From assembly GCF_035910975.1 (NCBI RefSeq), contig NZ_JAMHWM010000026.1:63042-127041 (forward strand): a stretch of DNA of 64,000 bases, written 5' to 3'. The position numbers and the translations under genes were made by a program. The notes under the pieces are model-generated. The model saw nothing but the letters and a program-made list of their open reading frames with translations, did not search any database and was not told where the DNA came from. Of the stretch, positions 13,028-63,509 are shown piece after piece. This DNA is from Sphingomonas sp. GTDB lineage: Bacteria; Pseudomonadota; Alphaproteobacteria; Sphingomonadales; Sphingomonadaceae. Position 1 is the stretch's first letter. Each line of letters begins with the position of its first letter.

Positions 13028-13097
13028 GGTGACCCCCGGTTCCGCCGGCCCGGCGCCGATCAGCGACGGACGGGCTCGATTTGCATAGTTCTGCTAA

Positions 13098-13112
13098 TGC
13101 AAGTAATTCGCA
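13098..13112. promoter_or_regulatory. Fur-type (alphaproteobacterial TGCGAnTnnnTCGCA-like) operator upstream of the CirA-like receptor
   Basis: TGCAAGTAATTCGCA, an imperfect 7-1-7 palindrome about 70 nt upstream of the receptor ATG. Confidence 0.55.
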
Positions 13113-44422: not shown

Positions 44423-44640
44423 GGCTCCCGACGAACTTTCGCCGGGTTCCTGCGGAAAAAAGGCATCTGGCGCCAGAAAATTTCGCTAGCCGCCTAGCAT
44501 CAGGAAATTTCTCTGCGCGCGCCATCGTCGGGTGGGCAAGCGCGGGACGCCCCGGACGGACGAGACGATGCGCCGCCGTAACAACCAGCGAGGCGCCCGG
44601 CGGTTGCGGCGACGCGAACGCGGGCCTATCGGCGCTCGCC

Positions 44641-45321: not shown

Positions 45322-45468
45322 TCCGGGCGCTGGTCTTCCTGCGAAATTGCTCGCCGCGACCGGACGCTCGCCCGGGTGATGACCGGGGGCGACTCCGCCC
45401 CGCATGCCGCCCGAACTTTTCCCGATTCGACGCTTTCATGGCGCGAGCGATCGGCTAGGGTCGTCGCA

Positions 45469-46428: not shown

Positions 46429-46842
46429 TCAGCCAGAGAGCGCCGCCAGCCATGCCGGCGCCGAATCGCCGCCGCGCAGCCGCTCCATCCGCCGGGTATC
46501 GATATAGTCGCGCCACGCGGCGATCAGCTCGCCGCGAAACTCGATCACCGCGGCATAGGGCATCGCCACCACGGTGCCGTCGGTGCGGGTATAGGCGTCC
46601 ACGCCTTCCGCAAACAACCGGTCGCCGCTTTCGGCATGGTGCAGGATGCGCCAGCGCGTTTCCGCCATGTCGCCGCGCAGCTGCTCCAGGAAGGCACGCA
46701 CCGCCGCCTTGCCCATCAGCGGTGGAAACGCGCCGACCGCCACGTGCCAGACCACATCGTCGGCCATGCCGGCGAGCGCGCCGTCGATGTCCCCCGCATT
46801 CCACGCCGCGATCACCGCCGCGAAGCGATCGGCGTGGCTCAA
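46429..46842 (-). CDS. NTF2/SnoaL-fold protein, limonene-1,2-epoxide hydrolase-like
   Basis: AWNAGD…DDVVWH…FAEGVD…IAAWRDYID. Confidence 0.75.
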   Translation of the reverse strand: MSHADRFAAVIAAWNAGDIDGALAGMADDVVWHVAVGAFPPLMGKAAVRAFLEQLRGDMAETRWRILHHAESGDRLFAEGVDAYTRTDGTVVAMPYAAVIEFRGELIAAWRDYIDTRRMERLRGGDSAPAWLAALSG

Positions 46843-48533: not shown

Positions 48534-48565
48534 TCTACCTCTCCATCCTCATCAGGTCCCCAACC

Positions 48566-48643
48566 CCGTTCGTGCTGAGCTTGTCGAAGCACCGTCCTTG
48601 TTCGAGAGGACGTGCGGCCCTTCGACAAGCGCGGGCCGAACGG
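48566..48643. repeat. REP/REPIN-like element, family A
   Basis: CCGTTCGTGCTGAGCTTGTCGAAGCAC … GCCCTTCGACAAGCGCGGGCCGAACGG. Confidence 0.85.
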
Positions 48644-48656
48644 GAGAAGGGACGTC

Positions 48657-49454
48657 TCACGCCCGCTTGGGCGGCCACGGTACGAAACCGCTGGTCCGTG
48701 CGATATAGTCGGCATAGCCCGGCTTGGTCTTGCGCATGCGGAATTCCAGCGTCGGCGCGCCCGACCATTTCATCAGAGTCCAGGTCAGCAGCACCGGCCC
48801 CGGCAGCGCAAGCCAGCCGAGCGGGGTTTCCGCACCGATCAGGAACAGCCCCCACCACACACAGGCGTCGCCGAAGTAGTTGGGGTGCCGGGTATAGCGC
48901 CACAGACCCGTCGACAGCACCTGCCCCGCGTTCGCCGGGTTCTTGCGGAAAACGGTCAGCTGCCAGTCGCCGATGCTTTCGAAGATGATGCCGAACACCG
49001 CCAGCGCGGCACCAACGTAGGCAAGCGTGCCCAGCGCGACCGGCTCCGCCTGGATCTGCCCCAGCATCACCGGCAGCGCGACGATGAACTGCAGCGGCGC
49101 CTGGGTGGCGAACACCAGCCAGAACGACGCCCTGGCATAGCCCCAGCCGCGCTTGTCCTGCGCCTTCTCCATCATCCGCACATAGCGCCGGTCGGGGCCG
49201 TGATCGCGCCACCGCCAGAACAGATATCCGCCCAGCCGGATCGCCCAGATCGCGCAGATCACGGTCAGCAGCCAGCGCCGGTCGGTCGCCACCTCCATCT
49301 GCGCGAAGGTCGCGATCGCCAGCACCATCATGCCCAGCGCCCACCAGGCATCCACCATCGTCACGTCGCGGATCGACGCGCAGATCGCCCACATCATCGT
49401 GAAAGCGATGACGACGGTCACCGCGTCGATCGCCAGGATTCTAATGACGTCCAT
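48657..49454 (-). CDS. DUF1295 / steroid 5-alpha-reductase-like membrane protein
   Basis: True start ATG 49454; VDAWWALG, DRRY, ESIGDWQL and GLWRYTRHPNYFGD. Confidence 0.88.
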   Translation of the reverse strand: MDVIRILAIDAVTVVIAFTMMWAICASIRDVTMVDAWWALGMMVLAIATFAQMEVATDRRWLLTVICAIWAIRLGGYLFWRWRDHGPDRRYVRMMEKAQDKRGWGYARASFWLVFATQAPLQFIVALPVMLGQIQAEPVALGTLAYVGAALAVFGIIFESIGDWQLTVFRKNPANAGQVLSTGLWRYTRHPNYFGDACVWWGLFLIGAETPLGWLALPGPVLLTWTLMKWSGAPTLEFRMRKTKPGYADYIARTSGFVPWPPKRA

Positions 49455-49467
49455 ATTCCCTCCCCCG

Positions 49468-49545
49468 GTGCTCCCGCGCAGGCGGGAGCCTAGAGCCACA
49501 CAGGACAGCATTTGCGGCCCTGGGCTCCCGCCTGCGCGGGAGCAC
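49468..49545. repeat. REP/REPIN-like element, family B, intact
   Basis: GTGCTCCCGCGCAGGCGGGAGCCTAG … CTGGGCTCCCGCCTGCGCGGGAGCAC, near-perfect inverted arms. Confidence 0.88.
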
Positions 49546-49558
49546 GGCGGTATGTCGA

Positions 49559-50323
49559 TCAACGCCCCGTGCTGATCGTCTCCATGTCCAGCATCCGTGC
49601 CAGCGCGCGTTCCTGCGCCTTGGGATCACGCGCCTTGTGGGCGCGGACCTCGATAGCCATGCGGTCGGTGTCGATCTCGTCGGTGCCGCGCTTGATCGCC
49701 GACAGGCCGATCTTCGCGATGTCAGCCGGCGTTTCCTTGGCGCCGGCGACGTGCGCGGCCATCCGCGTATCGACCGAACCGACGATCAGCGCCGACACGC
49801 TCGTCCCCTGTTTCGCCAGTTCGGCGCGGATCGATGTGCTCGCCGCGCGCGCCGCGAACTTCGACGGGCTGTATCCGCCCATCGCCGGCACCGCGACGAC
49901 GCCGCCCGATGACAGGATGTTGACGATCGCCCCGCCGCCATTGGCCTTCAGCGCAGGCGCGAAGGCGCGGCACATGCCGAGCAGGCCGAAGTAGTTGACC
50001 TCCATCTCCTCGCGCGCGGCGTCCATCGTCTCGGCGCCGATCAACCGCTGGTTGAGGAACGCGCCGGCATTGTTGACGACGATGGTGACATCGGTCGCCG
50101 CCTTCGCGGCCGCGGCGATCTGGTCGGGCCTGGCGACGTCGAGCGTCAACGCGACGACCTTCCCCTGTCCCTCCTCGACCAGATGCTGCGCGTTCGCCGG
50201 ATCGCGGCTGCCGACATAGACCTTCGCCGCACCACCCGCGATCAGCGCGCGGACGAACGCCTCGCCGATCCCGCGATTGCCCCCGGTGACGATCGCCACC
50301 GATCCCTCGATAGGCGTCGCCAC
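49559..50323 (-). CDS. Short-chain dehydrogenase/reductase
   Basis: TGGNRGIG, NNAG and YSPSK. Confidence 0.92.
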   Translation of the reverse strand: MATPIEGSVAIVTGGNRGIGEAFVRALIAGGAAKVYVGSRDPANAQHLVEEGQGKVVALTLDVARPDQIAAAAKAATDVTIVVNNAGAFLNQRLIGAETMDAAREEMEVNYFGLLGMCRAFAPALKANGGGAIVNILSSGGVVAVPAMGGYSPSKFAARAASTSIRAELAKQGTSVSALIVGSVDTRMAAHVAGAKETPADIAKIGLSAIKRGTDEIDTDRMAIEVRAHKARDPKAQERALARMLDMETISTGR

Positions 50324-50324
50324 G

Positions 50325-50858
50325 TCAGGCCGCCCGCGAACTGTACAGCACGTCGGCCGGATGCTTGGCGCCGCGCACCAGCTCGGTGCCGTCGGGGAAC
50401 ATCATCCCCCGGCCCCAGCTTTCGGCGAACGGCATCTCGTGGTTCCATTCCCACGCCAGCCGGCGGTGCGCGATCTTCCACTGGCCGTCGCGGCGCTCGA
50501 ACCGGTCGATCGCGCGGGCCAGCGTCAGCGTGTCGAATTTCTCGCCGCCCTTCTCCTTCATCCGCGCAAAGGCCAGGATGTAATGCTCGGCGTGGGCGAC
50601 GTCGCCGTCCAGTTCGATGACGATATTGGTCGCCAGGTGGTTCATGATCCCGCCCCTGGGCAGCATCTTCGCCATCAACGCCACATAGTCGCTGGCGGGT
50701 CCGTTGTAGACGCCGCCGTGATCCTCGATCGCGTCGGGGTGATAGGCATCGGCGATCAGCGCGATCTCCGCCCGGTCGGCGCCGCGCAGGTACAGGTTGA
50801 TGACGTCGGTGATCGCCTGCTTGTCCAGCAGCGCCTGGATTTCGGGCGGAAGGCTCAT
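50325..50858 (-). CDS. SnoaL_4/NTF2-like protein (LinA/BaiE dehydratase-like)
   Basis: ITDVINLYLRGADR, YHPDAIEDHG, NHLATN and DRFERRDGQWKIAHRR; ATG 50858. Confidence 0.8.
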   Translation of the reverse strand: MSLPPEIQALLDKQAITDVINLYLRGADRAEIALIADAYHPDAIEDHGGVYNGPASDYVALMAKMLPRGGIMNHLATNIVIELDGDVAHAEHYILAFARMKEKGGEKFDTLTLARAIDRFERRDGQWKIAHRRLAWEWNHEMPFAESWGRGMMFPDGTELVRGAKHPADVLYSSRAA

Positions 50859-50869
50859 CGATTTTCCTC

Positions 50870-52651
50870 TCAAAGAACGATGACGTCGGCGTCGGGCGCG
50901 TCGGCGTACAGCCGCTCGACGTCGCCAGAACGGCGGGCGATGACCGCGCGGCGGTTGATCGTGCCCTTGTCGGACATTTCATGCGCATTGGCCGATGGCG
51001 GTTCATCGAGGAGCAGCGCGCGGGATATCCTCGACGATCCGCCGTGCTGGCCCGCGTTGAACGCGCGCAGCCCGGCCTCGATATCCGCGCGCCCCGCGCC
51101 GCCGACGGTCCACAGCATCAGCGTCAGGTACGGCCGGTTCTCATCGCACAGCACGACATCGCGGACATGCGGCGCCAGGGCCTTGAGCAACTGGTCGCGC
51201 AGCGCCCCGCCATAGACCCACGCGCCGCTCGACAGCTTGAATTCCTCCGCCGCACGCCCGGCGAAAGCCAGTCCCGCCTCGGGCCGCGCATCGTCATGGA
51301 ACACCGCCATGTCGCCGGTGCGATAAAAGCCCTCGTCGTCGAACGCCTGGGCGGTCTTCTCAGGCTCGTCGAGGTAGCCGCGGGTAACGTTCGGCCCCTT
51401 CGCGCGCACCTCGTAACGGTCGCCCGCCGGCACCAGCTTCACCACCGCGCCCGGCGCGGGCAGGCCGATGCCCACCCGGTCGCTCTCGAAATAGATCGCC
51501 ATGAACGCCGACACCGTCTCGGTCGAACCATAGCCGGACGTCAGCGTGATACGGTGCCCGGTTTCCGCCACCGCGCACGCCTGCAGCCTGTCGTAGGTCG
51601 GCTGGCTCAAACCCGCGCCGCCATAGAGCATCAGCACCAGCCGCGAGAAGAAATTGCGGCGCAACACCGCATCCTGCTCCAGCGCCTCGACCAGCATCGT
51701 GTAGCCGAGCGGCACATTGTTGAAATAGCGCACCGGCACGTCGCGCAGGTTGCGGATCGATTCCTCGAACAGGCCGGGCACCGGCTTGCCGTCGTCGATG
51801 TACAGCGTGCCGCCTTCGGTCAGCGTGGTGCGCAGCACGAACGCGCCGGCCGCATGATGCCACGGCAGCCAGTCGAGCATCGTGTCGTGCCACCCGGCCG
51901 CCTCGCCGATCATCTGGCGGCACTGGATCGAATTGGCGCCCAGGTTGGCGAAGCTGATCTCGACCATCTTGGGCAGGCCGGTCGATCCCGACGTCAGCAT
52001 ATAGGCAGCGATGTCGTCCGGGCGGATCGCGTCGATCGCCACCTGCACCGCACCGGTCGGCACCGCCGCGTAGAGATCGCCAAGCGCCGTGGCCGGGCTG
52101 GGCGAGGCGGCGGGATCTGCGGTGACGAGGATCGCATCGCCCAGGTCGAGCGCCGCGAGCGCCGGTGCCAGCTTCGCCGTGTTTTCCGCGACGACGATGC
52201 CCGGCTTCACCTTGGCGATCACATGCGCCAGCCGGCCGTAATCGCCGCCCAGCGCGCCATAGGCCGAACTGACCGGACACACCGGCAGCCCCGCCGCCCA
52301 GGCCGCGAAGGTCAGGGCAGCGAACGCCGGCGTATTGTCGGCGATCAGCAGCAACGGTCGATCGGCCGGCGCGTGATCGAGCAGCCACTGCGTCGCCGCG
52401 TCGATCCGCCCCTTCAATTCACGATAGCTAAGCGTCGCCCAGCCATCGCGCCCGGCCTCGCGCCACGCCAGCGCGACCTTGTCGCCCTGCTGGCCCACAC
52501 TGTCGGCCAGCGCGCGGGGCAGGTTCGCGTCGAAATCGCCGATCGGCACGTTGCTGCGCAGCAGGATCGTGCCGTCGTCGCGCCGTTCGACATCCAGATC
52601 GACCGGCAACAGCTTCGCTTCGCGGAACGGGGGAAGTGCGCCCTCGGTCAT
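50870..52651 (-). CDS. Feruloyl-CoA-synthetase-like acyl-CoA ligase
   Basis: ERRDDGTILLRS N-terminus, LTSGSTGLPK, WLPWHH, GYGSTET, AEEFKLSSGAWV and EMSDKGTINRRAV; ATG 52651. Confidence 0.85.
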   Translation of the reverse strand: MTEGALPPFREAKLLPVDLDVERRDDGTILLRSNVPIGDFDANLPRALADSVGQQGDKVALAWREAGRDGWATLSYRELKGRIDAATQWLLDHAPADRPLLLIADNTPAFAALTFAAWAAGLPVCPVSSAYGALGGDYGRLAHVIAKVKPGIVVAENTAKLAPALAALDLGDAILVTADPAASPSPATALGDLYAAVPTGAVQVAIDAIRPDDIAAYMLTSGSTGLPKMVEISFANLGANSIQCRQMIGEAAGWHDTMLDWLPWHHAAGAFVLRTTLTEGGTLYIDDGKPVPGLFEESIRNLRDVPVRYFNNVPLGYTMLVEALEQDAVLRRNFFSRLVLMLYGGAGLSQPTYDRLQACAVAETGHRITLTSGYGSTETVSAFMAIYFESDRVGIGLPAPGAVVKLVPAGDRYEVRAKGPNVTRGYLDEPEKTAQAFDDEGFYRTGDMAVFHDDARPEAGLAFAGRAAEEFKLSSGAWVYGGALRDQLLKALAPHVRDVVLCDENRPYLTLMLWTVGGAGRADIEAGLRAFNAGQHGGSSRISRALLLDEPPSANAHEMSDKGTINRRAVIARRSGDVERLYADAPDADVIVL

Positions 52652-52653
52652 CG

Positions 52654-53160
52654 TCAGACGGCCGGACGGTCCAGCATCGCGTCGACGGTCGCCCGCACAC
52701 CCTTGCCGGCGATCTGTTCCTCCTGCAGCCGGCCTTCGAAATATTCGCGCCAGTGGCGGATCTTGCCGCCTTCGTAATTCAGGATGCCGCAATAGGGGAT
52801 GGCGACGCGGGTGCCGTCGATCGTGTCGAATTCGTCGACACCCTCCATCCACACCGTGTCGCCCACCTGCGCCACGTCGAACAGCCGCCAGCGGTTGTTC
52901 TTCAGCCGGCCCTTCATCGCCTCCAGCGTCTTGGCCATCTGCGCCTTGCCCTGGATCGGCGGCTTCAGCCCGCCCGAATTGTTCCAGGTCACATCGTCGT
53001 GCAGTTCGGCGAGCACGCCGTCCGCATCGGCGCGATGCCAGCTTTCGATCACGCGCTTCAGGCTGGCGATATGGTCGGCCATGTTTCTCTCCTTCGCTAG
53101 TGCCGGATAGGTGACGGCGACAGCCATCCCCCCGATCAGTATCGTCCTGCGATCGATCAC
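52654..53160 (-). CDS. NTF2/limonene-epoxide-hydrolase-like protein with optional Tat leader
   Basis: GTG 53160 overlapping the thiolase stop (MIDRRTILIGG…ALA), internal ATG 53082 with a strong RBS; WMEGVD…HWREYFE. Confidence 0.75.
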   Translation of the reverse strand: MIDRRTILIGGMAVAVTYPALAKERNMADHIASLKRVIESWHRADADGVLAELHDDVTWNNSGGLKPPIQGKAQMAKTLEAMKGRLKNNRWRLFDVAQVGDTVWMEGVDEFDTIDGTRVAIPYCGILNYEGGKIRHWREYFEGRLQEEQIAGKGVRATVDAMLDRPAV

Positions 53161-54368
53161 CGCTGCACCACCAGACTGACCGTGGTCGTGGTCGATCCGC
53201 CGATGTTGAGCGTCTGGACGGTCCGCGCCCCTTCGACCTGATAGTCGCCGGCGGTGCCCGTCACCTGCTTGAACGCGTCGAGTGCCATGCGCACGCCGGT
53301 GGCGCCGACTGGATGGCCGCAACCGATCAGCCCGCCCGATGCGTTTATCGGATTGGCGCCGCCGATCGCGATCGACCCGTCCTCGACGCGTTTCCACGCC
53401 TCGCCCGGCGCGGCGAGGCCGAGGTGCTCGATCGCCATATATTCGGTCATGCTGAAACAGTCGTGGACCTCATAGGCGTCAACCCGGTCCACCCCGGCGC
53501 GCGCGCGCGCTTCGTCCGCCGCGCGCTTGACCTGCGGAAAGACATAGCCCGACGGGTCGCGCGCATCGAGCTTGCGCCGCGCCGCGATCGGCGCGGAGCG
53601 ATGCCCCCAGCCGGCGATGCGCGGCAGGCTGGCGACATCGATCCCGCGTTCTTCGGCATAACGCTTCGCCCGGTCGGCGCTGGCGAGGAAGATCACGCTG
53701 GCGCCGTCGGTCACCTGGCCGCAATCGGTCTTGCGCACGCGGCCCTCGACGATCGGATTGGCTTCGGGATCGTCGGTGAAGCTCGCCGCGCCGAACTGCC
53801 AACCGCGGGTCTGCGCGTTGGGATTGCGGCGACCGTTGGCGAAATTGATCTCGGAAATGCGCGACAGATGGCGCGGATCGATGCCGAAACGCCTGTCATA
53901 CTCCTCGGTCAGGTCGGAAAAGGCGCGCGGCCAGACATAGGTGGCGTCGCCGAATTCATGCCCGGTCCATGCCGCCGCGCCCAGATGCTGCGCAGCAATC
54001 AGGCCCGGCACGTTGCGCATCTGCTCCATGCCCACAACGCAGGCGAGGTCGTAGCGCCCCGCCTCGATCTCCGCCGTCGCCGCCAGGATCGCGACCGATC
54101 CGCTGGCGCAAGCGGCCTCGTGGCGGCTGGTCGGCAGGCCGTCGAAATCCGGGTGGACCAGCCCGAAGAAACCGCCGAGCAGCCCCTGTCCGGCGAACAG
54201 TTCGGCGACGAAATTGCCGACATGGCCGGTCTCGACCTCCCTCGCGTCCAGCTTTGTCGCGTCGAGCCCGGCCTCGACCGTCTCGGCAAAGGCATCGGCC
54301 AGGTCGACGCCGCGGCGCGACCAGTTGTCCGCGAAATCGCTCTGCCAGCCGCCGAGGATATAGGTCAC
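53157..54368 (-). CDS. SCP2-type (SCP-x-like) thiolase / acetyl-CoA acetyltransferase
   Basis: HEAACASGS, VHDCF, GHPVGATG and LNIGGS. Confidence 0.88.
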   Translation of the reverse strand: MTYILGGWQSDFADNWSRRGVDLADAFAETVEAGLDATKLDAREVETGHVGNFVAELFAGQGLLGGFFGLVHPDFDGLPTSRHEAACASGSVAILAATAEIEAGRYDLACVVGMEQMRNVPGLIAAQHLGAAAWTGHEFGDATYVWPRAFSDLTEEYDRRFGIDPRHLSRISEINFANGRRNPNAQTRGWQFGAASFTDDPEANPIVEGRVRKTDCGQVTDGASVIFLASADRAKRYAEERGIDVASLPRIAGWGHRSAPIAARRKLDARDPSGYVFPQVKRAADEARARAGVDRVDAYEVHDCFSMTEYMAIEHLGLAAPGEAWKRVEDGSIAIGGANPINASGGLIGCGHPVGATGVRMALDAFKQVTGTAGDYQVEGARTVQTLNIGGSTTTTVSLVVQR

Positions 54369-54400: not shown

Positions 54401-54417
54401 AGTCTGATTAAGCAAGC
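54401..54417 (-). promoter_or_regulatory. Cluster operator motif, copy 1
   Basis: Minus strand GCTTGCTTAATCAGACT, between the MFS stop and the thiolase start. Confidence 0.65.
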
Positions 54418-55788
54418 TTATGTCGGGATAGCGCCGGGGTCAACCGGGTTCGCCGCCGCCAACGCGCTCACCGCGCGGCCGAACGGGCGGATCGACAGCA
54501 ACACCATCGTCCCCGCGATCGGGCCCAGTATCACCGTCGCCAGCGCGATCGCCGGCCCCAGCGCTGCAGGATCGCCAAGCACATGTTCGGTGATGAGCGC
54601 GACGCTGACCGGGCCGATCGTCAGCCCGACCAGCCCCAGCACGAAATAATAGAGCGCCGCCGTGCGGCCGCGCAGGTCGCCCGGCGCCGCCTCGCACAAT
54701 GCCGCGACCGCGATCCCGCCCGACGCGGTGAAGGCGACCATGCCCGGTGCAAGGATGTAGAGCGCGGTCCAGCCGTCTGGCGCGAGGCATGCGGCGATCA
54801 GCAGCGGGGTGACCAGCAGGATCGACAGCCCGGTCACCTTCAGGCTCGCCGCCTGCACGCCGCGCATCGCCAGCCGCGACGCCAGCCACCCGGCGCCGGC
54901 CAGTCCGAATCCACCGAACACCATCACGACGAAGCCGTAGCGCAGCCCCACCTCGCCCGCCGTCCAGCCGAACGCACGAATGAAATAGGCCGGCATCCAG
55001 CTCAGCACGCCGTAGATCAGCACGCAGTAGCAGGCCATGCCGCCCAGGTGCAGGACATGGAATCCGCGATGCCGGCGGATGTGGGCGATCAGCCCGCTGC
55101 CGCCCGTTTCCTGACGCACCGCCGCCTCGCGCCGCGCCGGCTCCGTGACGAAGGCGAGCAGCACGACGACGATCAGCCCGCCCAGCCCGACGATCACGAA
55201 CGTCGCCTGCCACGGCGCGAGCAGGCCGACGATCGGCAGTTTCAGCCCCTGTGTCTTCGAAATCGCCTGGATCGCGGCACCGCCCAGCATCAGCGCGAGG
55301 CCCGCGCCGATCGACGACGCCATCGAATAGACGCTGATCGGAAACGCGCGCTTCTCCGGCGGGAAGCTGTCGCCGATCATGCTGATCGCGGCGGGCGACA
55401 ATGTCGCCTCGCCCGCGCCCACGCCCATCCGCGCGACGAATATCTGCCAGAAGTTCGACGACAGCCCGCATGCTGCCGTCGCCAGGCACCAGAAGGTGAC
55501 GCCGCCGGCGATCACCTTCTTGCGCGATACGCGATCGACCAGCCAGCCGAGCGGCATGCCCATCGCGATGTAGAACAGCCCGAACGCCAGCCCCTGCAGC
55601 AGCGCGATCTGCGTATCGCTCAGCCCCAGGTCGGCCTTGATCGGATCGATCAGCAGGCTCAGGATCGTGCGGTCGACGAAGCTGACGGTGTAGCCCAGCG
55701 TCAGCACCGCCACCGTGAGCCAGCTGCGCGCCGGGGACGGCCAGCCGCCCGTCACGCCCGCCGACGGTGCCGTCGCCCCGGCCATCAC
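54418..55788 (-). CDS. Spinster-like MFS transporter
   Basis: YTVSFVDRTILSLL, GVGAGEATLSPAA and DSFPPEKRA. Confidence 0.9.
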   Translation of the reverse strand: MMAGATAPSAGVTGGWPSPARSWLTVAVLTLGYTVSFVDRTILSLLIDPIKADLGLSDTQIALLQGLAFGLFYIAMGMPLGWLVDRVSRKKVIAGGVTFWCLATAACGLSSNFWQIFVARMGVGAGEATLSPAAISMIGDSFPPEKRAFPISVYSMASSIGAGLALMLGGAAIQAISKTQGLKLPIVGLLAPWQATFVIVGLGGLIVVVLLAFVTEPARREAAVRQETGGSGLIAHIRRHRGFHVLHLGGMACYCVLIYGVLSWMPAYFIRAFGWTAGEVGLRYGFVVMVFGGFGLAGAGWLASRLAMRGVQAASLKVTGLSILLVTPLLIAACLAPDGWTALYILAPGMVAFTASGGIAVAALCEAAPGDLRGRTAALYYFVLGLVGLTIGPVSVALITEHVLGDPAALGPAIALATVILGPIAGTMVLLSIRPFGRAVSALAAANPVDPGAIPT

Positions 55789-56198
55789 CGCGTTGCTGAA
55801 TCGAAGTCCTGCACCACGCCCATCTCGCTCAGCAGATGGTGGCGGTCATAATATTCGCGCCAGACCTTGATCTTGTCGCCCTCGAACTCGAGCGCGCCGC
55901 ACACAGGCGCGGCACCGGGCTTGCCGTTGCACACGAAGGTGTCGAGCCGCTCCATGTACAGCGTCCCGTTGATGACGCCCATGTTGCGAACCTGCAGGTC
56001 GATCGACGAGGCAAGCGCGCCGAGCCCGGAAATCCGTTTGTGGATCGCATCGCGGCCGACGATCGGGTCGATCATCATCGAATGCAGCACGGCATCCTCG
56101 GTCATCAGCGCGGCGGCGGCGTCCCAGTCCATCGCGTTCCACGCCGTGATCATCTCGTGACCGACCTCGATCTTGCGTGCGTCGGATGCCTCGCTCAT
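55785..56198 (-). CDS. Limonene-1,2-epoxide hydrolase family protein
   Basis: MERLD and VWREYYD reproduce the R-x-D…D catalytic arrangement of LEH. Confidence 0.8.
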   Translation of the reverse strand: MSEASDARKIEVGHEMITAWNAMDWDAAAALMTEDAVLHSMMIDPIVGRDAIHKRISGLGALASSIDLQVRNMGVINGTLYMERLDTFVCNGKPGAAPVCGALEFEGDKIKVWREYYDRHHLLSEMGVVQDFDSATR

Positions 56199-56216
56199 CG
56201 CCTGTCTCTCCAGTTA

Positions 56217-56233
56217 AGTCGTTTTATGCAAGT
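56217..56233 (-). promoter_or_regulatory. Cluster operator motif, copy 2
   Basis: Minus strand ACTTGCATAAAACGACT, downstream of TTGACA (56263-56258). Confidence 0.7.
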
Positions 56234-56363
56234 GAAGGTGCCGCAGCGGACCGGCCGTGTCAACGCCGACCCAGTCCGGCCTGTCACCGACCACCCGTCG
56301 CACCTAATCCGGCGGGTTGCGGACGCTCTTGACAAGGATCAACTCCGGGCAGATGTTCGTGCC

Positions 56364-56380
56364 GCTTGCTTAAAGCGACT
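56364..56380 (+). promoter_or_regulatory. Cluster operator motif, copy 3
   Basis: GCTTGCTTAAAGCGACT, downstream of TTGACA (56329-56334). Confidence 0.7.
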
Positions 56381-56427
56381 GAGTTCGACCGCCCGATACG
56401 GGGCGGCGACGACCAGGAGAGGATCTG

Positions 56428-58653
56428 ATGGCCGCACGTCCGTTCACCGCCGTTTCGTGTCTCGCGATCGCCGCCGCCTTCGCCGCGCCCGCCGCCGCCC
56501 AGTCGGCTCCACCGCCGGCGCAGCAGGAGGCTGACGGTCCGCAGGTCGCCGACGTCGTCGTCACCGCGCGCAAGCGCGAGGAAAGCCTGCAGGACGTGCC
56601 GATCGCGGTGACCGCCTACTCGGGCGACGCGATCCGCGACGCGCAGATCGTCGATCTTTCCGCCATTGCCGGCCGCACCCCCAGCTTCACCTTCCAGAAA
56701 CAGGGGTCGATCGAGCAGGAGGCATTCATCCGCGGCGTCGGCACCGTCCGCCTGACCAGCGCCACCGCCGACCCGTCCGTCGGCCTGTTCATCAACGAGG
56801 TCTATATCGGCCGCCGCGGTGCCGCGACGCCCCCGATATTCGATCTCGAGCGGGTCGAGGTGCTTCGCGGTCCGCAGGGCACGATCTTCGGCAAGAACGT
56901 GGTCGGCGGCGCGGTCAGCCTCATCACCGGCGCGCCGCGCTTCGAATTCGGCGGCGCGGCCTATATCGCCGCCGGCAATTACGGCACCGTCCAGTCGGAA
57001 GCCCATGTGACGGGCGCGCTCAGCGACACCGTCGCCGCGCGCATCGCCTTCGCCACCGACCGCCACGACGGCTACAGCCGCAACATCGTCAACGGCCAGG
57101 AACTGGAGGACACCAACGGCTATGCCGGACGCCTGTCCTTCCTGGTCAACGCCTCCGATCGCCTGACGCTCAACTTCGTCGGCGACGTCAGCCACGATTC
57201 GGGCGGCGGCCAGGCCCGCCACGCAGTCGATGACCCGACCCGCGCGGGCGTCGGAGCCATCGCGGCGGCGAACCTGTCCAGCGATCCGCGCACCACCTTC
57301 ACACCGTATGAGCAGTTCCAGCGCCGCACGACCTACGGCTTCTCCGCGCGGGCCGACTATGACTTCGGCGGCGCGACGCTCACCTATCTCGGCGCGCTGC
57401 GCGGCGGCGATTCGGGACAGCGCTTCAGCCAGGCCGGCGCCGGCGCACCGCCGTCGCTGACCGATTCGGTGCTCACCCAGTTCGAGAAATACACCGGCGT
57501 CACGCAGGAACTGCGCATCGCCTCCGATCCCGCCAAGCAGCTCCGCTGGCTGCTCGGCCTCTACTATCTGCGCGAGGAAACCGATCGCAGCTCGGAAAAC
57601 GCCGCGCGTTCGGCCCTGCCCGGCGGCCCCGGCGGCACCCGCGACAGCCTCGACGGCGTGAACAACTTCACCCAGAACGGCGTGGCATCCAACTATGCCG
57701 CGTTCGGTGAAGTCGAATATGAATTCATGCCCGGGCTGACCGCGTCGCTCGGCGCGCGCTACACCATCGACAACAAGGTGACGGACGCGTCCGCCACGAT
57801 CATCAGCTTCGGCATGCCCGGCGACATCCTGTCACCCGCGCCGCTGCGCACACCGTACAACATCTCGGTCGAGAACACCTGGCGCGAGCTGACCCCGCGC
57901 GCCGCGCTCGAATGGAAGGCGTCGGACAATGTCCTCGTCTACGCATCCGCGGCGAAGGGCTTCAAGGGCGGCGGCTGGCAGGCTGCGACCCCCGATCCGG
58001 TCACCGCGGCGCGGCCGTTCAACCCGGAAACCGCGTGGAACTATGAAATCGGCATCAAGAGCGACCTGTTCGATCGCCGTGTCCGCCTGAACCTCGCGGC
58101 CTTCCGCCTCGACTTCAACGACCTCCAGGTCGAACAGCTCGACGACGTGCTGCTGACCACCGTCGTAACCAACGCCGCCAGCGCGAAGATCCAGGGTATC
58201 GAGGGCGAGGTCTCGCTCGCCGTTACCGAGGGCTTCACCCTGTCCGGCTCCGGCTCGATCCTCGACGCCAAGTACAAGCTCTATGTCGATCCCCGCCGCA
58301 ACATCACCTACACCGGCAACTCGCTACCGCGCACGCCAGACTATCAATTCTCGGTCGCGGCGGACCTGAAGCAGCCCATCGGCGGCGATCTGGAGCTGAT
58401 GGCGAACGCCAGCTACACCTATCAGGACACATTCTTCTACGGCCCCGACAACACCAATTTCGAGCCTGGCTACGGCCTGCTCGACGCGCGGCTCGGCATC
58501 GGCAAAATCGGCGGCCGCTGGGCGGTGTCGCTTTGGGGCAAGAACCTGACCAACCGTTTGTACCGTACCAGCGTGATCCCGTTCCTGGGCGACGAATCCT
58601 CGCTCTACGGCGCCCCACGCACCTACGGCGTCCGTCTCTCGTCGAAATTCTGA
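56428..58653 (+). CDS. TonB-dependent receptor
   Basis: DVVVTARKREESLQDVP, LERVEVLRGPQGTIFGKN; C-terminal YGAPRTYGVRLSSKF. Confidence 0.95.
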   Translation: MAARPFTAVSCLAIAAAFAAPAAAQSAPPPAQQEADGPQVADVVVTARKREESLQDVPIAVTAYSGDAIRDAQIVDLSAIAGRTPSFTFQKQGSIEQEAFIRGVGTVRLTSATADPSVGLFINEVYIGRRGAATPPIFDLERVEVLRGPQGTIFGKNVVGGAVSLITGAPRFEFGGAAYIAAGNYGTVQSEAHVTGALSDTVAARIAFATDRHDGYSRNIVNGQELEDTNGYAGRLSFLVNASDRLTLNFVGDVSHDSGGGQARHAVDDPTRAGVGAIAAANLSSDPRTTFTPYEQFQRRTTYGFSARADYDFGGATLTYLGALRGGDSGQRFSQAGAGAPPSLTDSVLTQFEKYTGVTQELRIASDPAKQLRWLLGLYYLREETDRSSENAARSALPGGPGGTRDSLDGVNNFTQNGVASNYAAFGEVEYEFMPGLTASLGARYTIDNKVTDASATIISFGMPGDILSPAPLRTPYNISVENTWRELTPRAALEWKASDNVLVYASAAKGFKGGGWQAATPDPVTAARPFNPETAWNYEIGIKSDLFDRRVRLNLAAFRLDFNDLQVEQLDDVLLTTVVTNAASAKIQGIEGEVSLAVTEGFTLSGSGSILDAKYKLYVDPRRNITYTGNSLPRTPDYQFSVAADLKQPIGGDLELMANASYTYQDTFFYGPDNTNFEPGYGLLDARLGIGKIGGRWAVSLWGKNLTNRLYRTSVIPFLGDESSLYGAPRTYGVRLSSKF

Positions 58654-58704
58654 GGCCAAAGGGGGCGTGTGACTGGCCGGTGCGGGAGATCGCTCCGGCC
58701 AGTC

Positions 58705-58721
58705 ACTTGCATTACGAGACT
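58705..58721 (+). promoter_or_regulatory. Cluster operator motif, copy 4
   Basis: ACTTGCATTACGAGACT, about 45 nt upstream of the dioxygenase start. Confidence 0.65.
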
Positions 58722-58765
58722 ATCTGGTCTAGGCCAGTAATCAGGCGCAATCCGAAAGACATGTC

Positions 58766-60238
58766 GTGATGAAGGTCGAACGTCTCCCCCCCGTCGTCAC
58801 CAGCCTGAAACCCGGCAACCATCCCTATCTCAACGGCGCCTGGACCCCGCTGCACGAGGAGGTGGACGCCGAGGATCTGGAGGTGATCGCCGGCGCGATT
58901 CCGGCCGACATCGACGGCGTCTACATCCGCAACACCGAAAACCAGGTGCACCAGCCGCTGGGGCGCCATCACCCCTTCGACGGCGACGCGATGATCCACC
59001 AGATCGCGTTCCGGGACGGCAAGGCCAGCTACCGCAACCGCTTCGTCCGCACCCGCTGTTTCGAGGCGGAGCAGGAGGCCGGCCGCTCGCTATGGGGTGG
59101 TCTCGCCGATCCGCCGGGCACCTCGGTCCGTCCCGGCTACGGCGCGCATGGCAGCCTCAAGGACAATGCCTCGACCGACGTCGTCGTCCATGCCGGCAAG
59201 CTCTATTCGACCTTCTACCAGTGCGGCGAGGCCTATACGCTCGACCCGCTGACGCTCGACGATCTCGGCATCGCGCCATGGGCGCCGATCGACGGCGTGT
59301 CGGCACATTGCAAGGTGGACGAGGCGACCGGCGAGCTGCTGTTCTTCAACTATTCGAAGCACGCGCCGTACATGCATTACGGCGTGGTCGATGCCTCGGG
59401 CAAGCGCACCACCTACATGCCGATCCCGCTGCCGGGCCCGCGGTTACCGCACGACATGGCGTTTTCGGAACGCTTCTCGATCCTCAACGACCTGCCGGTG
59501 TTCTGGGATCCGGGCCTGCTGGAGCGCGGCGTCCACGCGGTGCGCTTCTTCCGCGACATTCCCTCGCGTTTCGCCATCGTACCGCGCCACGGCGGCGACG
59601 TCCGCTGGTTCGATGCCGCGCCCTGCTACATCCTCCATTTCCTCAACGCCTATGAGGATGGCGACGAGCTGGTGCTCGACGGCTATTTCCAGGAAGACCC
59701 CACCCCGCCGCCGCTCCACGGCTCGGTCGAGGGCCATGAACACATGATGGCCTATCTCGACATGCACAGTTTCAAGAGCCGCCTGCATCGCTGGCGCTTC
59801 GACCTGAAGACCGGCGCGACGCGCGAGGAGCGGCTGTACGACGGCATCGTCGAATTCGGCATGATGAACGCGCGCTACGCCGGAAAGCCTTATCGCTACG
59901 CCTATTCGGTCACGTCGAAGCCCGGCTGGTTCCTGTTCGACGGCTTCGTCAAGCACGACCTGGAAACGGGCGAGGCGCAGACGATCAAGCTGGAGCCCGG
60001 CCGCTACGCCAGCGAAGCCCCATTCGCCCCGCGGGTCAACGCCTCGTCGGAGGATGACGGCTATCTCGTCAGCTTCGTGATCGACGAAAATCGCGGCACG
60101 TCCGAATGCATATTGATCGACTGCAAGGATTTCGCCGCCGGTCCGGTGTGCCGAATCGCACTGCCGCACAAGATCTCCAGCGGCACGCACTCGGTCTGGG
60201 CCGATCGCGCCTTCATCGAGGGCGGGCGCGCCGCCTGA
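58766..60238 (+). CDS. Carotenoid cleavage oxygenase (RPE65/CCO/LSD) family dioxygenase
   Basis: HPFDGDAMIH, RNRFVRT, four Fe-ligand His (SAHCKVD, LPHDM, ILHFLN, GTHSVW) and SEAPFAPR…EDDGYL. Confidence 0.93.
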   Translation: MMKVERLPPVVTSLKPGNHPYLNGAWTPLHEEVDAEDLEVIAGAIPADIDGVYIRNTENQVHQPLGRHHPFDGDAMIHQIAFRDGKASYRNRFVRTRCFEAEQEAGRSLWGGLADPPGTSVRPGYGAHGSLKDNASTDVVVHAGKLYSTFYQCGEAYTLDPLTLDDLGIAPWAPIDGVSAHCKVDEATGELLFFNYSKHAPYMHYGVVDASGKRTTYMPIPLPGPRLPHDMAFSERFSILNDLPVFWDPGLLERGVHAVRFFRDIPSRFAIVPRHGGDVRWFDAAPCYILHFLNAYEDGDELVLDGYFQEDPTPPPLHGSVEGHEHMMAYLDMHSFKSRLHRWRFDLKTGATREERLYDGIVEFGMMNARYAGKPYRYAYSVTSKPGWFLFDGFVKHDLETGEAQTIKLEPGRYASEAPFAPRVNASSEDDGYLVSFVIDENRGTSECILIDCKDFAAGPVCRIALPHKISSGTHSVWADRAFIEGGRAA

Positions 60239-60239
60239 C

Positions 60240-61289
60240 ATGGCCGTGCGGGTGATCCAGTGGGCGACGGGCGCGATGGGACGGACGTCGCTCCGGCGGA
60301 TCATCGACCATCCCGACCTCAAACTCGTTGGCGTCTACGTCTATTCCGCCGACAAGGCCGGGCGCGATGCCGGCGATCTGGCGAAGCGTCCGGCGACCGG
60401 CGTGATCGCCACCGACGATATCGAAGCGATCCTCGCCCTCGACGCCGATGTGGTGATGCATATGCCGCGCATCACCCTGCCCTATGATGCGATGAACGCC
60501 GATGTCGCGCGGCTGCTCGCCTCGGGCAAGAACGTCATCTCGACCGCCGGCTTCCACTATCCGCCCGCCCATGCTGCGCATTATGCTGCGCCGCTCGCCG
60601 CAGCATGCGTGGCCGGCGACAGCACGCTCGCCGGGCTGGGCGTCAATCCCGGCACGATCGTCGAGCGGCTGACGCTCGCCGCGACCGGGCTGTGCGCGGA
60701 CCTCGCACATGTCGATATCCGCGAGACGGTCGATGCCTCGTCGATGGCGTCGAAGGAATTCGTGTTCGGCCTGATGGGGTTCGGGGCCGATCCCGCGACC
60801 GACGACATCACCGACGGCCCGCTTGCCGCGCTCTATACCGCGCTGTTCTCCGAAGTCCTGCACCTCGCCGCTGCCGGCCTCGACGATCCGGTCGTGGGGA
60901 TCGCGCCACGCCACGAAATCACCGCCGCGCCGCGCGATATCAACCTGCCCGCCGGGATCATCCCGGAAGGCACCGTCGCCGCGACGCGCTGGCGCTGGAC
61001 GGCGACGCTGGCGAGCGGCATCTCTCTGACGCTATCGATCCTGTGGACCGCCGATCCCGCGCTTCATCCCGAGGACGGGCGCGGCCACTGGACGATCGAC
61101 ATCACCGGCCGGCCCAACATCCGCCTGACCGTCGCGATCGACGAAGGCGATCCGGCGGCAGCCCCCGCCCGCGCGCTGACCGACGCCACCGTCGCGGTCG
61201 CCATCGCCGGCATCCCGGCGGTGGTTGCCGCCCCGCCCGGCTTCTTCGCCTATCCCGCACCGCCCGCCTTCCGCCGGCGGCTGGGGTGA
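60240..61289 (+). CDS. NAD(P)-dependent oxidoreductase, DapB/2,4-diaminopentanoate dehydrogenase-like
   Basis: VIQWATGAMG Rossmann variant, KAGRDAG, LLASGKNVIST, GVNPG and IPAVVAAPPG. Confidence 0.78.
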   Translation: MAVRVIQWATGAMGRTSLRRIIDHPDLKLVGVYVYSADKAGRDAGDLAKRPATGVIATDDIEAILALDADVVMHMPRITLPYDAMNADVARLLASGKNVISTAGFHYPPAHAAHYAAPLAAACVAGDSTLAGLGVNPGTIVERLTLAATGLCADLAHVDIRETVDASSMASKEFVFGLMGFGADPATDDITDGPLAALYTALFSEVLHLAAAGLDDPVVGIAPRHEITAAPRDINLPAGIIPEGTVAATRWRWTATLASGISLTLSILWTADPALHPEDGRGHWTIDITGRPNIRLTVAIDEGDPAAAPARALTDATVAVAIAGIPAVVAAPPGFFAYPAPPAFRRRLG

Positions 61290-61461
61290 CGGCAGGGGTT
61301 CAGAAGTTGGATTTCGACTGGCAGCGTCGTCGTCCGATGGCATCTGAATCTTTCCCGCTCCCCGGCGCGCGGCGCGCCTTGCCCACGCCGATAGCCGGCG
61401 GGGCGAAGCCGGATCGATCGCGCGCGTTGCCCCTACCCTCGTCAACTTCGGACCTGCGATC

Positions 61462-62610
61462 ATGACCGTCTACATCCGCGACGCGCTGCGCACCCCGCGC
61501 GGAAAGGCCCGGCCCGACGGTGGGCTTGCGCAGCATATGCCGCAGGACCTCGTCGCGGCGCTGATCGACGCGCTGGAGGATCGCGCGCCCGGCGCCCGCG
61601 CCACCGACAGCCTGATGCTCGGCTGCGTCGGCCAGGTCGGCGCGCAGGGCGGCAACATCGCGGTGGTCTCGAAGCTCGCCGCCGGCCTGCCGGATGGCGC
61701 CGCCGCGCAGACGATCAACGCCTATTGCGCCAGCGGCCTCGTCGCGGTCGGCCAGGCGGCCGCGCTGATAGAGAGCGGCACGATCGACACCGCGCTGGCC
61801 GGGGGTGTGGAGATGATGTCGCACGTCGGCTTCATGGCCGACAAGGCTGCCTTCTACACCGACCGTAATCTGCCCCGCGCCGCGCAGTTCATCCCCGTAG
61901 CGGTCGCCGCCGATCGCCTTGCGACGCGCGAGGGCATCGATCGCGCGGCGATGGATCGCGCGGCCGAGATCTCGCAAGCCCGCGCGCTTGCCGCCGAAGC
62001 CGATCCGGCGCTGACGAAATCGCGCATTGTAGTGGGCGACCTTTCCCGAGAGGAAAACCCGCGCGCGGGCATGACGCTCGACAGGCTTGCCGCATTGCCC
62101 GCCGCCTTCGCCGATCTCGCCACCGCCTATACCGACGTACTGGGCGACGAGGCGATCACCTATACGCACAGCATCGCCCACGCCCCGCCGATGTGCGACG
62201 GCGCCGGCCTTGCCGCGCTCACCCGCGATCCCGCCGGCGCCCGCGCGCGCATCATCGCCTATGCCGAAGTCGGCGGGGACGCATCCGCCTCGCTCACCGC
62301 CGGCTTCGCCGCGATGGACCGGGTGCTGGGCCGCGCCAGCCTGACCCTCGCCGATATCGACCGTATCGAGTTCATGGAGGCGTTCGCTGTCGTCATCGCG
62401 AAGTTCCTGCGCGACCGCGATGTCGACCCCGCGCGCGTCAACATATCGGGCGGCCATCTCGCCAAGGGGCATCCGATGGGCGCGACCGGGGCGATCCTGC
62501 TATCCACCCTGCTCGACACGCTCGACGCCGCCGAAGGGCGTTACGGCATGGTCGTCGTCACCGGCGCGTCGGGAGTAGGCGCGGCGATGATCGTCGAGCG
62601 CTGCGCATGA
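61462..62610 (+). CDS. Thiolase-family protein with atypical active site
   Basis: DALRTPRGK, NAYCASG, DGA and GHPMGATG; the C-terminal CxGGG motif is replaced by TGASG. Confidence 0.85.
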   Translation: MTVYIRDALRTPRGKARPDGGLAQHMPQDLVAALIDALEDRAPGARATDSLMLGCVGQVGAQGGNIAVVSKLAAGLPDGAAAQTINAYCASGLVAVGQAAALIESGTIDTALAGGVEMMSHVGFMADKAAFYTDRNLPRAAQFIPVAVAADRLATREGIDRAAMDRAAEISQARALAAEADPALTKSRIVVGDLSREENPRAGMTLDRLAALPAAFADLATAYTDVLGDEAITYTHSIAHAPPMCDGAGLAALTRDPAGARARIIAYAEVGGDASASLTAGFAAMDRVLGRASLTLADIDRIEFMEAFAVVIAKFLRDRDVDPARVNISGGHLAKGHPMGATGAILLSTLLDTLDAAEGRYGMVVVTGASGVGAAMIVERCA

Positions 62611-63509
62611 TACCGTCGCTGCGTATGCCGGTCGTCGCCGCGCCGATGTTCCTGGTGACCGGACCCGACCTGGTCATCGCGGCGAGCAACGCCGGCATCC
62701 TCGGGGCCTTCCCGACCAGCAACTGCCGGACCGCGGAGGAGCTCGACAGCTGGATGGCGCGTATCGCCGGCGCGGTCGGCGATCGGCCGTGGGCGGCGAA
62801 CCTCATCACCCATTCGACCAACCCGCGCCTTGCCGATGATCTCGCGCTGGTCGCCAAATATCGTCCGCCGCTCGTCATCACCGCACTCGGCAGCCCCGTG
62901 CCGGTAATCGATACGGTCCATGCCTATGGCGGCACCGTGCTGGCCGACGTCGTCGATCTGAAGCTTGCCCGCAAGGCGCTGGCCGCCGGCGCCGACGGCC
63001 TCGCCTGCGTCAGCCACGGCGCCGGCGGCCACACCGGCAGCCTTTCGCCGCTCGCCTTCGTGTCGGCGGTACGGCAGTTCCATGCCGGCCCGCTCGCGGT
63101 GGGCGGCGGGATCGCCGACGGCGCCGGTGTCGCCGCCGCGATCGCGGCGGGCGCCGACCTCGTCTACATGGGCACCCGTTTCATCGCCGCGACCGAGAGC
63201 CTTGCCGCGCCGGGCTACAAGGCGATGCTGGCCGAGGCGACGATCGCGGACATCGTCGTCAGCGCCGCCCCCACCGGCACGCCCGCGTCGTGGCTGCGCC
63301 CCAGCCTCGCCGCCGCCGGCTACGCCGACGACGCCCCAGCCGGTGCCCGCAACTATGGCGCGCCCGACGAAGCCGTGAAACGCTGGCGCGACATCTGGGC
63401 CGCGGGGCAGGGCGTCCACGCCACCACCGCCGAACAGCCGGTCGCCGAGATCGTCGCCGAGCTCGAAACGGGCTTCCGCGCAGCCCAGGCCCGGCTGGCG
63501 CGTTTCTAG
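62607..63509 (+). CDS. Nitronate monooxygenase / FabK-like FMN oxidoreductase
   Basis: ATG 62607 (ATGA overlap); VVAAPMFLV, GAGGHTG, GGGIADG, VYMGTRFIAATES and DIWAAGQGV. Confidence 0.88.
   Translation: MIPSLRMPVVAAPMFLVTGPDLVIAASNAGILGAFPTSNCRTAEELDSWMARIAGAVGDRPWAANLITHSTNPRLADDLALVAKYRPPLVITALGSPVPVIDTVHAYGGTVLADVVDLKLARKALAAGADGLACVSHGAGGHTGSLSPLAFVSAVRQFHAGPLAVGGGIADGAGVAAAIAAGADLVYMGTRFIAATESLAAPGYKAMLAEATIADIVVSAAPTGTPASWLRPSLAAAGYADDAPAGARNYGAPDEAVKRWRDIWAAGQGVHATTAEQPVAEIVAELETGFRAAQARLARF

Follow-up and report, generated by a model that had tools for sequence, protein, structure and literature searches.

Bacterial carotenoid cleavage oxygenases are common, and to our knowledge their physiological pathways and regulation are largely unknown. 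A gene for such an enzyme lies in a 64,000-nucleotide (nt) stretch of Sphingomonas sp. DNA (NZ_JAMHWM010000026.1, positions 63,042 to 127,041 of the forward strand; assembly GCF_035910975.1), hereafter the window, which derives from an activated-sludge metagenome represented by DNA sequencing runs and has a G+C content of 68%. A 17-bp element recurs here in front of four transcription units of one gene cluster, next to a gene for a protein with two HxlR domains in tandem, raising the question of which factor reads this element and with what outcome. We propose, at a probability of roughly 0.7, that the element is the operator of the adjacent tandem HxlR protein, which would most likely act as the repressor of the cluster. 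The components of this proposal, drawn from comparative sequence analysis, differ in strength: the 17-bp motif is almost certainly a functional cis-element, the tandem HxlR very probably binds it, and, given binding, it is rather likely to repress.

Four copies of a 17-bp element in the window

The degenerate pattern RCTTGCWTWANNNGACT has four exact matches in the window versus 0.00 expected from 100 dinucleotide-preserving shuffles. Allowing three mismatches raises the count to 12 versus 5.8 expected, with the other eight matches being at chance level; likewise, only these four sites exceed 14 bits in the window when scored with the refined weight matrix described below. All four 17-mers are present at the positions and on the strands given in an earlier reading made from the sequence only, and each is, as that reading had it, co-oriented with and located just 5' of the next gene (32, 18, 47, and 44 nt from the start codons for copies 1-4, respectively; Table 1). 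Copy 1 is lodged in the 49-bp gap following the MFS transporter stop codon and has orthologs in several related loci (L001, L004, L006, L014, L015, and others). Copy 2 lies directly 5' of a GGAGAG ribosome-binding site and forms an invariant block across nine aligned genomes.

The element is conserved together with tandem HxlR proteins

Homologs of the regulator (about 315 aa, each with two HxlR domains; 60-84% identity) are found in Sphingomonas, Sphingopyxis, Phenylobacterium, and Caulobacteraceae. In the respective contigs the regulator gene adjoins the same enzyme and transporter families despite rearranged gene order: in S. hylomeconis it is 3' of the NMO gene, and in Phenylobacterium it is placed between DUF1295 and a SnoaL-oxygenase pair. 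A motif search of orthologous intergenic regions, a check that the sequence-only reading had put forward, finds the element kept at the corresponding promoters in all the homolog contigs fetched, with a range extending from Sphingomonas to Phenylobacterium and Rhodospirillaceae.

A scan with the regulator alignment, using one genome per species, recovered 79 further loci, comprising 67 with full-length tandem proteins from Sphingomonadales, Caulobacterales, Hyphomonadaceae, and Rhodospirillaceae, and 12 with single-domain relatives (45-50% identity) from similar taxa. With a weight matrix refined on 90 distinct 17-mers and a threshold of at least 18 bits, the tandem-HxlR loci (1.14 Mb) yield 270 matches versus none in the single-domain control loci (234 kb) and none in the shuffled tandem loci (770 kb). 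The genes 3' of these sites code for the oxygenase (49), TonB receptor (42), SCPx-thiolase (34), DUF1295 (about 32), DapB_N oxidoreductase (25), LEH (22), SDR (15), thiolase (9), CoA ligase (7), NMO (5), and the regulator itself (4). Clustering of the open reading frames (ORFs) of 68 loci recovers a similar set, namely the regulator (64), DUF1295 (56), oxygenase (48), LEH (42), receptor (42), SnoaL (41), SCPx (37), SDR (36), two ligases (35 and 34), and NMO (31), along with further thiolase, SnoaL, and SDR families; these loci contain no conserved DNA-binding family other than the tandem HxlR and no conserved sigma factor gene. Across Sphingomonadales and Caulobacterales, 222 sites are co-oriented with a gene, 21 are only in the anti orientation, 16 lie inside genes, and 14 show neither arrangement.

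An asymmetric site and a two-module regulator

The 191 unique sites define the consensus t-n-ACTTGCATAAcaAGACT, with no variation at positions 2-4 and 15 and, in 81% of cases, a T two bases upstream. The ACTTGCAT half is unlike the AGACT half, and the site is therefore asymmetric, with no inverted repeat. Thus, neither the weak palindrome ascribed to it in the sequence-only reading nor the inverted repeat of about 16 bp that is typical of HxlR/DUF24 operators is seen. The length of the site and the spacing of its halves are those of the HypR box GTATCAAAATTGATAC (PMC3351151), and variant sites from Caulobacterales, ACTTGCATAAC-GATAC (ACTTGCATAACGATAC), have GATAC at positions 12-16, the same as in the HypR box. 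Overall, the sites lie 12-70 nt from start codons.

The regulator comprises two modules, each with a winged helix-turn-helix followed by a conserved β-hairpin of the form H-x3-H-x-C ... C-x2-C. The full pattern reads H-x3-H-x-C-G-x9-C-x2-C or H-x2-C-G-x9-C-x2-C (protein residues 118-152 and 283-306), with the invariant or near-invariant residues being H120, H124, C126, C136, and C139 in the first half and H287, C290, C300, and C303 in the second; these His/Cys hairpins might be zinc-ribbon-like. The AlphaFold2 model has a predicted local distance difference test score (pLDDT) of 87.7 and a predicted template-modeling score (pTM) of 0.85, with low confidence confined to residues 1-13 and the linker 167-173. 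Foldseek searches retrieve PA1607 (TMt 0.80), HypR (0.80), YodB (0.80), and HxlR (0.76), with each half superposing at a TM-score of about 0.8, and no solved single-chain analog is found among the structure and sequence matches of either half. In place of the homodimer of approximately 100-150-aa subunits that characterizes DUF24 proteins there is one 315-aa chain with a conserved linker (GPGAG...RAQRRS), which is predicted to fold as an intramolecular pseudo-dimer. The sensing Cys of the N-terminal α1 helix, another DUF24 trait (PMC3351151), is replaced by Asn19 in the clade of the window protein (90%), and the second module has no Cys there either. Therefore, a thiol switch of the YodB/HypR type is unlikely, and a small-molecule inducer appears more plausible.

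The window regulator gene is preceded by a promoter-like stretch of its own (Table 1), whose pattern is common to L001 and L004; since its TAGGGT ends 13 nt before the ATG, the leader is suggested to be very short or absent, which would make the mRNA leaderless or near-leaderless. A weak variant of the element that the sequence-only reading placed upstream of this gene, at 45345-45361, does not reach 8 bits when the refined matrix is applied and is thus at the level of background. The best candidate for an operator there, at 45426-45442, scores only 3.1 bits and lacks the right half-site; both were rejected as operators. Other lineages do have a site before the regulator (L008, 15.9 bits; L020, 14.2 bits; Hyphomonadaceae loci, 18-22 bits), and the Phenylobacterium regulator, which lies behind a strong site together with DUF1295, appears to share its transcript. 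The regulator of the window, having no operator, is thus probably not autoregulated. Directly 5' of it is a 252-aa ORF without a Pfam match (44532-45290, + strand); L008 has a 251-aa gene with no recorded Pfam family in the same position.

Links between regulator and element beyond co-location

Among metagenomic contigs scanned for ACTTGCATAANNAGACT, tandem HxlRs of 35-42% identity directly adjoin at least one copy of the motif, as in L101, with two inverted copies before the tandem HxlR gene, and in L115 and L127. However, 87 of the 120 matches come from low-G+C contigs and are mostly chance, leaving only the high-G+C subset useful; the scan is therefore uninformative on regulon size. An enoyl-CoA hydratase promoter that recurs in these data has the motif in reverse orientation, overlapping the predicted -10 box, and all three long contigs of this type encode a 37%-identical tandem HxlR beside a CoA ligase. 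The hydratase-type contigs come from soil and have about 60-62% G+C (L094, L112, L124, L138, L151, L153, L159, L166, L180, L190, L193, L210, L106, L172, L212); they share a longer conserved block, ACTTGCATAAGTAGACT...GTCAAGC, whose opposite strand reads as a TTGACG-N17/18-TACTTA promoter and which has no Rfam match. A separate contig, L207, has four head-to-tail copies (..gcgtaaacagact ACTTGCATAAACAGACT acttgcgtaatcct acttgcgcaatccgac) at about 3795-3880, 5' of a TetR-like gene, with no tandem HxlR detectable on the contig.

Presence of the motif and specificity residues of the regulator vary together. All seven motif-linked regulators compared retain IAPNIL, allowing for P/T/S variation, as the recognition helix of the second module, and two unlinked ones have another sequence there, IPPYIL in Cupriavidus pENH92 and LPTATV in S. 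granuli pRW412b. The latter two, both adjoining oxygenase clusters devoid of the motif, are the distant clusters to which a plasmid search led; that search found no close relative of the locus.

A natural change of half-site accompanies a paralog. A second tandem HxlR gene is present in about 20 loci of Caulobacterales, and 19 of these genes form a distinct clade B, with the clade-B gene being the second one, 0.2-5 kb into each locus (L021, L027, L029, L032, L036, L037, L040, L045, L049, L053, L055, L056, L062, L066, L067, L070, L072, L074, L076). Every one of the 19 loci holds sites with a TAC-type right half (GATAC or GTAC), the variant reading ACTTKCATAAC-GATAC, and such sites precede ACS1 in 7/7, SDR2 in 12/15, and DapB_N in 13/25 cases. 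In clade B, the recognition helix of the first module is altered (ARS to LQT), as is the linker, and the canonical sensing position is occupied by a Cys. The paralog clade and the variant sites together suggest two nested sub-regulons. The proposal of the sequence-only reading that the divergent halves of the cluster belong to one regulon under the tandem HxlR gains strong, albeit indirect, comparative support from conservation in rearranged loci, the 270 versus 0 sites, the lack of any other conserved DNA-binding family in these loci, and the motif and recognition helix being retained with regulators of only 35-42% identity.

Placement relative to predicted promoters and the mode of regulation

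The placement of the sites was read by aligning them per target family, with the promoter elements being predictions throughout. At oxygenase, SDR, and DapB_N promoters a -10-like box (TGcTAGGnT, GATGAT, or TAGGCT) follows TTGCAT by 16-17 nt, and the sites thus extend over the -35 box and spacer. Site 4 of the window conforms to this pattern: its bases 3-8 (TTGCAT) can act as a -35 for the -10-like TAGGCC at 58730-58735 with a 17-nt spacer, and the oxygenase-group consensus is GTC[ACTTGCatAAcAAGACc]atg.TGcTAGG.t (n=46). At Caulobacterales SCPx promoters site bases 6-11 are themselves TATAAT, with CTTGGC 16 nt upstream, and at DUF1295 promoters TAACTT overlaps site bases 1-4. The sphingomonad SCPx promoters, including that of window site 1, have TTGACN-17-TAAGCT overlapping site bases 1-3. 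In the window, the MFS gene ends with its TAA stop codon inside this predicted -10 box, and its coding sequence includes the predicted -35 box, suggesting an internal promoter packed into the 49-bp gap; the TTGACN-17-TAnnCT geometry recurs in L001, L004, L006, L014, and L015.

At LEH genes, window site 2 among them, only 12-18 nt separate the end of the site from the start codon, and the site lies 23-24 nt 3' of a TTGACA; these sites are hence predicted to cover the transcription start. The observation of the sequence-only reading that two copies lie downstream of a TTGACA is borne out, the distances being 24 nt for site 2, which would put it at about -1 to +16, and 29 nt for site 3, with both boxes invariant in nine sphingomonad genomes. 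Only five blocks are invariant when the LEH-receptor intergenic region is aligned across these genomes, namely site 2, the two -35 boxes (LEH and receptor), the ribosome-binding site, and the core of site 3. In other sphingomonads the receptor -35 box lies inside a third, reversed, and weak operator, ACTTGCTTGTCAAGACT (13-16 bits in L006, L008, and L014-L020), whose left half is lost in the window. The window also has a 55-bp insertion at 56266-56320 in this intergenic region relative to the eight other sphingomonads. Between the receptor gene and site 4 is a terminator-like hairpin (Table 1) without a T run, which is absent from the output of a terminator scan; similar hairpins are present in L006, L014, and L015.

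Every predicted placement is at or 3' of the -35 box, where a repressor acts, making repression the likeliest mode and the repressor-like placement surmised in the sequence-only reading plausible. We envisage a single polypeptide per asymmetric operator, bound as a pseudo-dimer, with one module reading ACTTGCAT and the other AGAC(T). At the four operators the protein would sit on, or immediately 3' of, the core promoters of units that together may serve to take up a carotenoid- or apocarotenoid-like substrate, cleave it oxidatively, and break it down in CoA-dependent reactions. Without inducer, the protein would most likely block RNA polymerase, and the pathway substrate or an intermediate might release it from the operator.

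Several points weigh against this proposal. Some DUF24 proteins, namely HxlR and HypR, activate their targets (PMC3351151), and the near-universal co-orientation of site and gene is beyond what simple occlusion requires. The site scan covered about 20 kb per genome around regulator genes, which bears on the size of the regulon, and the pseudo-dimer geometry is drawn from the pTM and the fold matches of each half. A strict promoter scan found zero promoters, although its E. coli-type model is uninformative for an alphaproteobacterium of 68% G+C. One possibility for the co-orientation is that the -35-like CTTGCA and -10-like CATAAN parts of the operator have themselves been recruited as promoter elements; it is not obligatory, as the enoyl-CoA hydratase promoters carry the site reversed. 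The first two points would also fit an activator or dual regulator acting through the same operator, like B. subtilis HxlR/HypR, for strict co-orientation is more often a trait of factors in contact with RNA polymerase, and at the oxygenase, SDR, and DapB_N promoters the site falls on the -35 region. We consider this unlikely, given that the LEH sites are predicted to cover +1 with the ribosome-binding site between site and start codon, that the site center is near -28 or further downstream at all modeled promoters rather than at -41 or -61, and that another lineage has the reversed site over the -10.

That the motif is bound by another factor encoded elsewhere, with the tandem HxlR having different targets, is less probable still. 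The scope of the scan and the absence of a site before the regulator gene of the window would be compatible with such a factor, but the regulator and the motif occur together in 67 loci from several alphaproteobacterial orders and down to 35% identity, no second DNA-binding family is conserved in them, and the co-varying recognition helix, the paralog clade with variant half-sites, and the DUF24-operator geometry all point to the HxlR protein. Equally, the motif could in principle be no protein operator but a core promoter element of an alternative sigma factor or an RNA signal in the 5' untranslated region, in keeping with its orientation and distance from start codons and with the resemblance of its left half to a -35 (CTTGCA) and of bases 6-11 to a -10 (CATAAN or TATAAT). 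We regard this as very improbable: the position relative to the predicted boxes differs among operons (-35, -10, or +1), which argues against a core promoter element with fixed spacing, the conserved gene set includes no sigma factor, and the hydratase promoters have the motif opposite to the transcript strand. Rfam covariance models find nothing at or near the four sites with E up to 1. A sigma-54 promoter (GG-N10-GC), checked by eye, was rejected, with site 3 lacking the -24 GG.

Gene content of the cluster

The four units behind the sites and the associated features are listed in Table 1. The families of the eight-gene unit behind operator 1 recur in 17-56 of the 68 loci. The closest match of the window oxygenase is a carotenoid 9,10-dioxygenase (9luz, E 2.8e-62), with lignostilbene dioxygenases being more distant.

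Table 1. Candidate operators, predicted promoter elements, and genes of the cluster in the window. Bit scores of operators are from the refined matrix; units were assigned with Pfam.
Feature	Coordinates	Strand	Details
Operator copy 1	54401-54417	-	GCTTGCTTAATCAGACT; 24.7 bits; 5' of SCPx-type thiolase GTG
Operator copy 2	56217-56233	-	ACTTGCATAAAACGACT; 29.6 bits; 5' of LEH ATG (LEH-MFS unit)
Operator copy 3	56364-56380	+	GCTTGCTTAAAGCGACT; 23.8 bits; 5' of TonB-dependent receptor ATG
Operator copy 4	58705-58721	+	ACTTGCATTACGAGACT; 28.0 bits; 5' of carotenoid oxygenase start
Thiolase-unit promoter (predicted)	54415-54443	-	-35 TTGACC 54438-54443, 17-nt spacer, -10 TAAGCT 54415-54420
LEH-MFS -35 box (predicted)	56258-56263	-	TTGACA; invariant TGTCAA block in nine-genome alignment
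TonB-receptor -35 box (predicted)	56329-56334	+	TTGACA; invariant GTCTTGACAAG block
Hairpin	58671-58704	+	10-bp stem (GACTGGCCGG...CCGGCCAGTC); 3' of receptor gene, abuts operator 4
Tandem HxlR regulator	45469-46416	+	315 aa; PF01638, 142.4 bits (cut-off 20.8), two stretches
Promoter-like stretch of regulator	45426-45468	+	GCTTTCAT, TAGGGT after 16 nt, ATG 13 nt further; no ribosome-binding site
Unit behind operator 1	46429-54368	-	eight genes
SCPx-thiolase	53157-54368	-	operator 1 unit
LEH	about 52654-53100	-	operator 1 unit
AMP-binding ligase	50870-52852	-	operator 1 unit
SnoaL_4	50325-50873	-	operator 1 unit
SDR	49559-50323	-	operator 1 unit
DUF1295	48657-49562	-	operator 1 unit; corrected ORF
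Acyl-CoA synthetase	46839-48533	-	operator 1 unit
SnoaL	46429-46842	-	operator 1 unit
LEH-MFS unit behind operator 2	54418-56198	-	LEH 55785-56198; MFS transporter 54418-55788
TonB-dependent receptor behind operator 3	56428-58653	+	
Unit behind operator 4	58766-63509	+	
Carotenoid cleavage oxygenase	58766-60238	+	operator 4 unit
DapB_N-type oxidoreductase	60240-61289	+	operator 4 unit
Thiolase	61462-62610	+	operator 4 unit
NMO-type flavoenzyme	62607-63509	+	operator 4 unit

Comparison with known regulators

Catabolic clusters whose promoters carry operators for a local regulator are already known as a type of system, and the YodB, CatR, and QorR proteins are local repressors of quinone/electrophile detoxification genes whose operators overlap the target promoters. 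They share the winged-helix DUF24 fold with the window protein (5hs7, TM 0.80) but are thiol-switch homodimers in charge of one or two detoxification genes, in contrast to a tandem protein without the canonical sensing Cys that is coupled to a cluster of several operons for catabolism and uptake. The Bacillus subtilis protein HypR (YybR) is of the same Pfam family and fold, with each half of the window protein matching 4a5n at TM 0.80, and its 16-17-bp operator has half-sites in the same register. However, HypR is a homodimer of 131-aa subunits on a perfect 7-2-7 inverted repeat, senses oxidants via Cys14, and activates hypO, whereas the window protein is one chain that would occupy an asymmetric site, with Asn in place of that Cys and His/Cys clusters after each module. 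The best matches of each half, including the C-terminal β-hairpin, are Pseudomonas aeruginosa PA1607 (2f2e) and PA1374 (4gcv) (E 1.4e-18 and 2.6e-17; TM 0.80), long DUF24 proteins of unknown function, which differ in being single-module and in having a hairpin extension without Cys residues.

Closer in architecture are the two-module HxlR proteins with C-x2-C hairpins from Cupriavidus necator pENH92 (43% identity) and Sphingopyxis granuli pRW412b, which likewise adjoin carotenoid oxygenase, NMO, CoA ligase, thiolase, and MFS genes but have other recognition helices and lack the ACTTGCATAA..AGACT motif. In pENH92 (L091) the tandem HxlR gene is divergent from an NMO-ligase-hydrolase-oxygenase-porin operon, and GGTTCATATnTTGAAGT occurs twice in the intergenic region (5166-5190 and 5283-5303); this repeat is presumably the Cupriavidus regulator's own operator.

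A search of the literature library at hand found no paper on this regulator type, motif, or cluster. The new aspects are the single-chain tandem DUF24 protein and its His/Cys hairpins, the asymmetry of the operator, half-sites specific to paralogs, and the conserved but uncharacterized oxygenase-centered pathway. Taken jointly, these lead us to a more tentative proposal, to which we give somewhat less than even odds: an undescribed class of single-chain pseudo-dimeric DUF24/HxlR regulators, with two winged-helix modules each bearing a His/Cys zinc-ribbon-like hairpin, might read an asymmetric 17-bp operator with one half-site per module, have paralogs that diverged at one half-site (AGAC versus GATAC), and control a conserved, uncharacterized system for the uptake and CoA-dependent degradation of carotenoid cleavage products in several alphaproteobacterial orders and beyond.

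The candidate regulon ties the oxygenase to a set of genes for an outer-membrane receptor, an MFS transporter, NTF2-like hydrolases/isomerases, two CoA ligases, thiolases, and reductases, and the regulator and its putative 17-bp operator would offer a genetic handle with which to identify the inducer and, through it, the substrate. Furthermore, the regulator would represent a dimeric winged-helix factor that occurs naturally as a single chain. With its separable half-site specificities and its naturally varying paralogs, it would be of use in tracing the evolution of asymmetric DNA recognition by fused dimers and as a small scaffold for biosensors.

Other matches in the window

Weak matrix matches (9-14 bits) at 13088, 36087, and 1306, found before another TonB receptor and an rpmI-like gene, were treated as chance. 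One weak match, ACTTGCATTAGCAGAAC (13.6 bits; 13082-13110, - strand), belongs to a separate inverted repeat, TTGCAT-N10-ATGCAA, located 5' of another TonB-dependent receptor gene (10679-13027) that is divergent from the gene for an OmpR-type response regulator (13190-13960); this repeat is probably the site of a different regulator.

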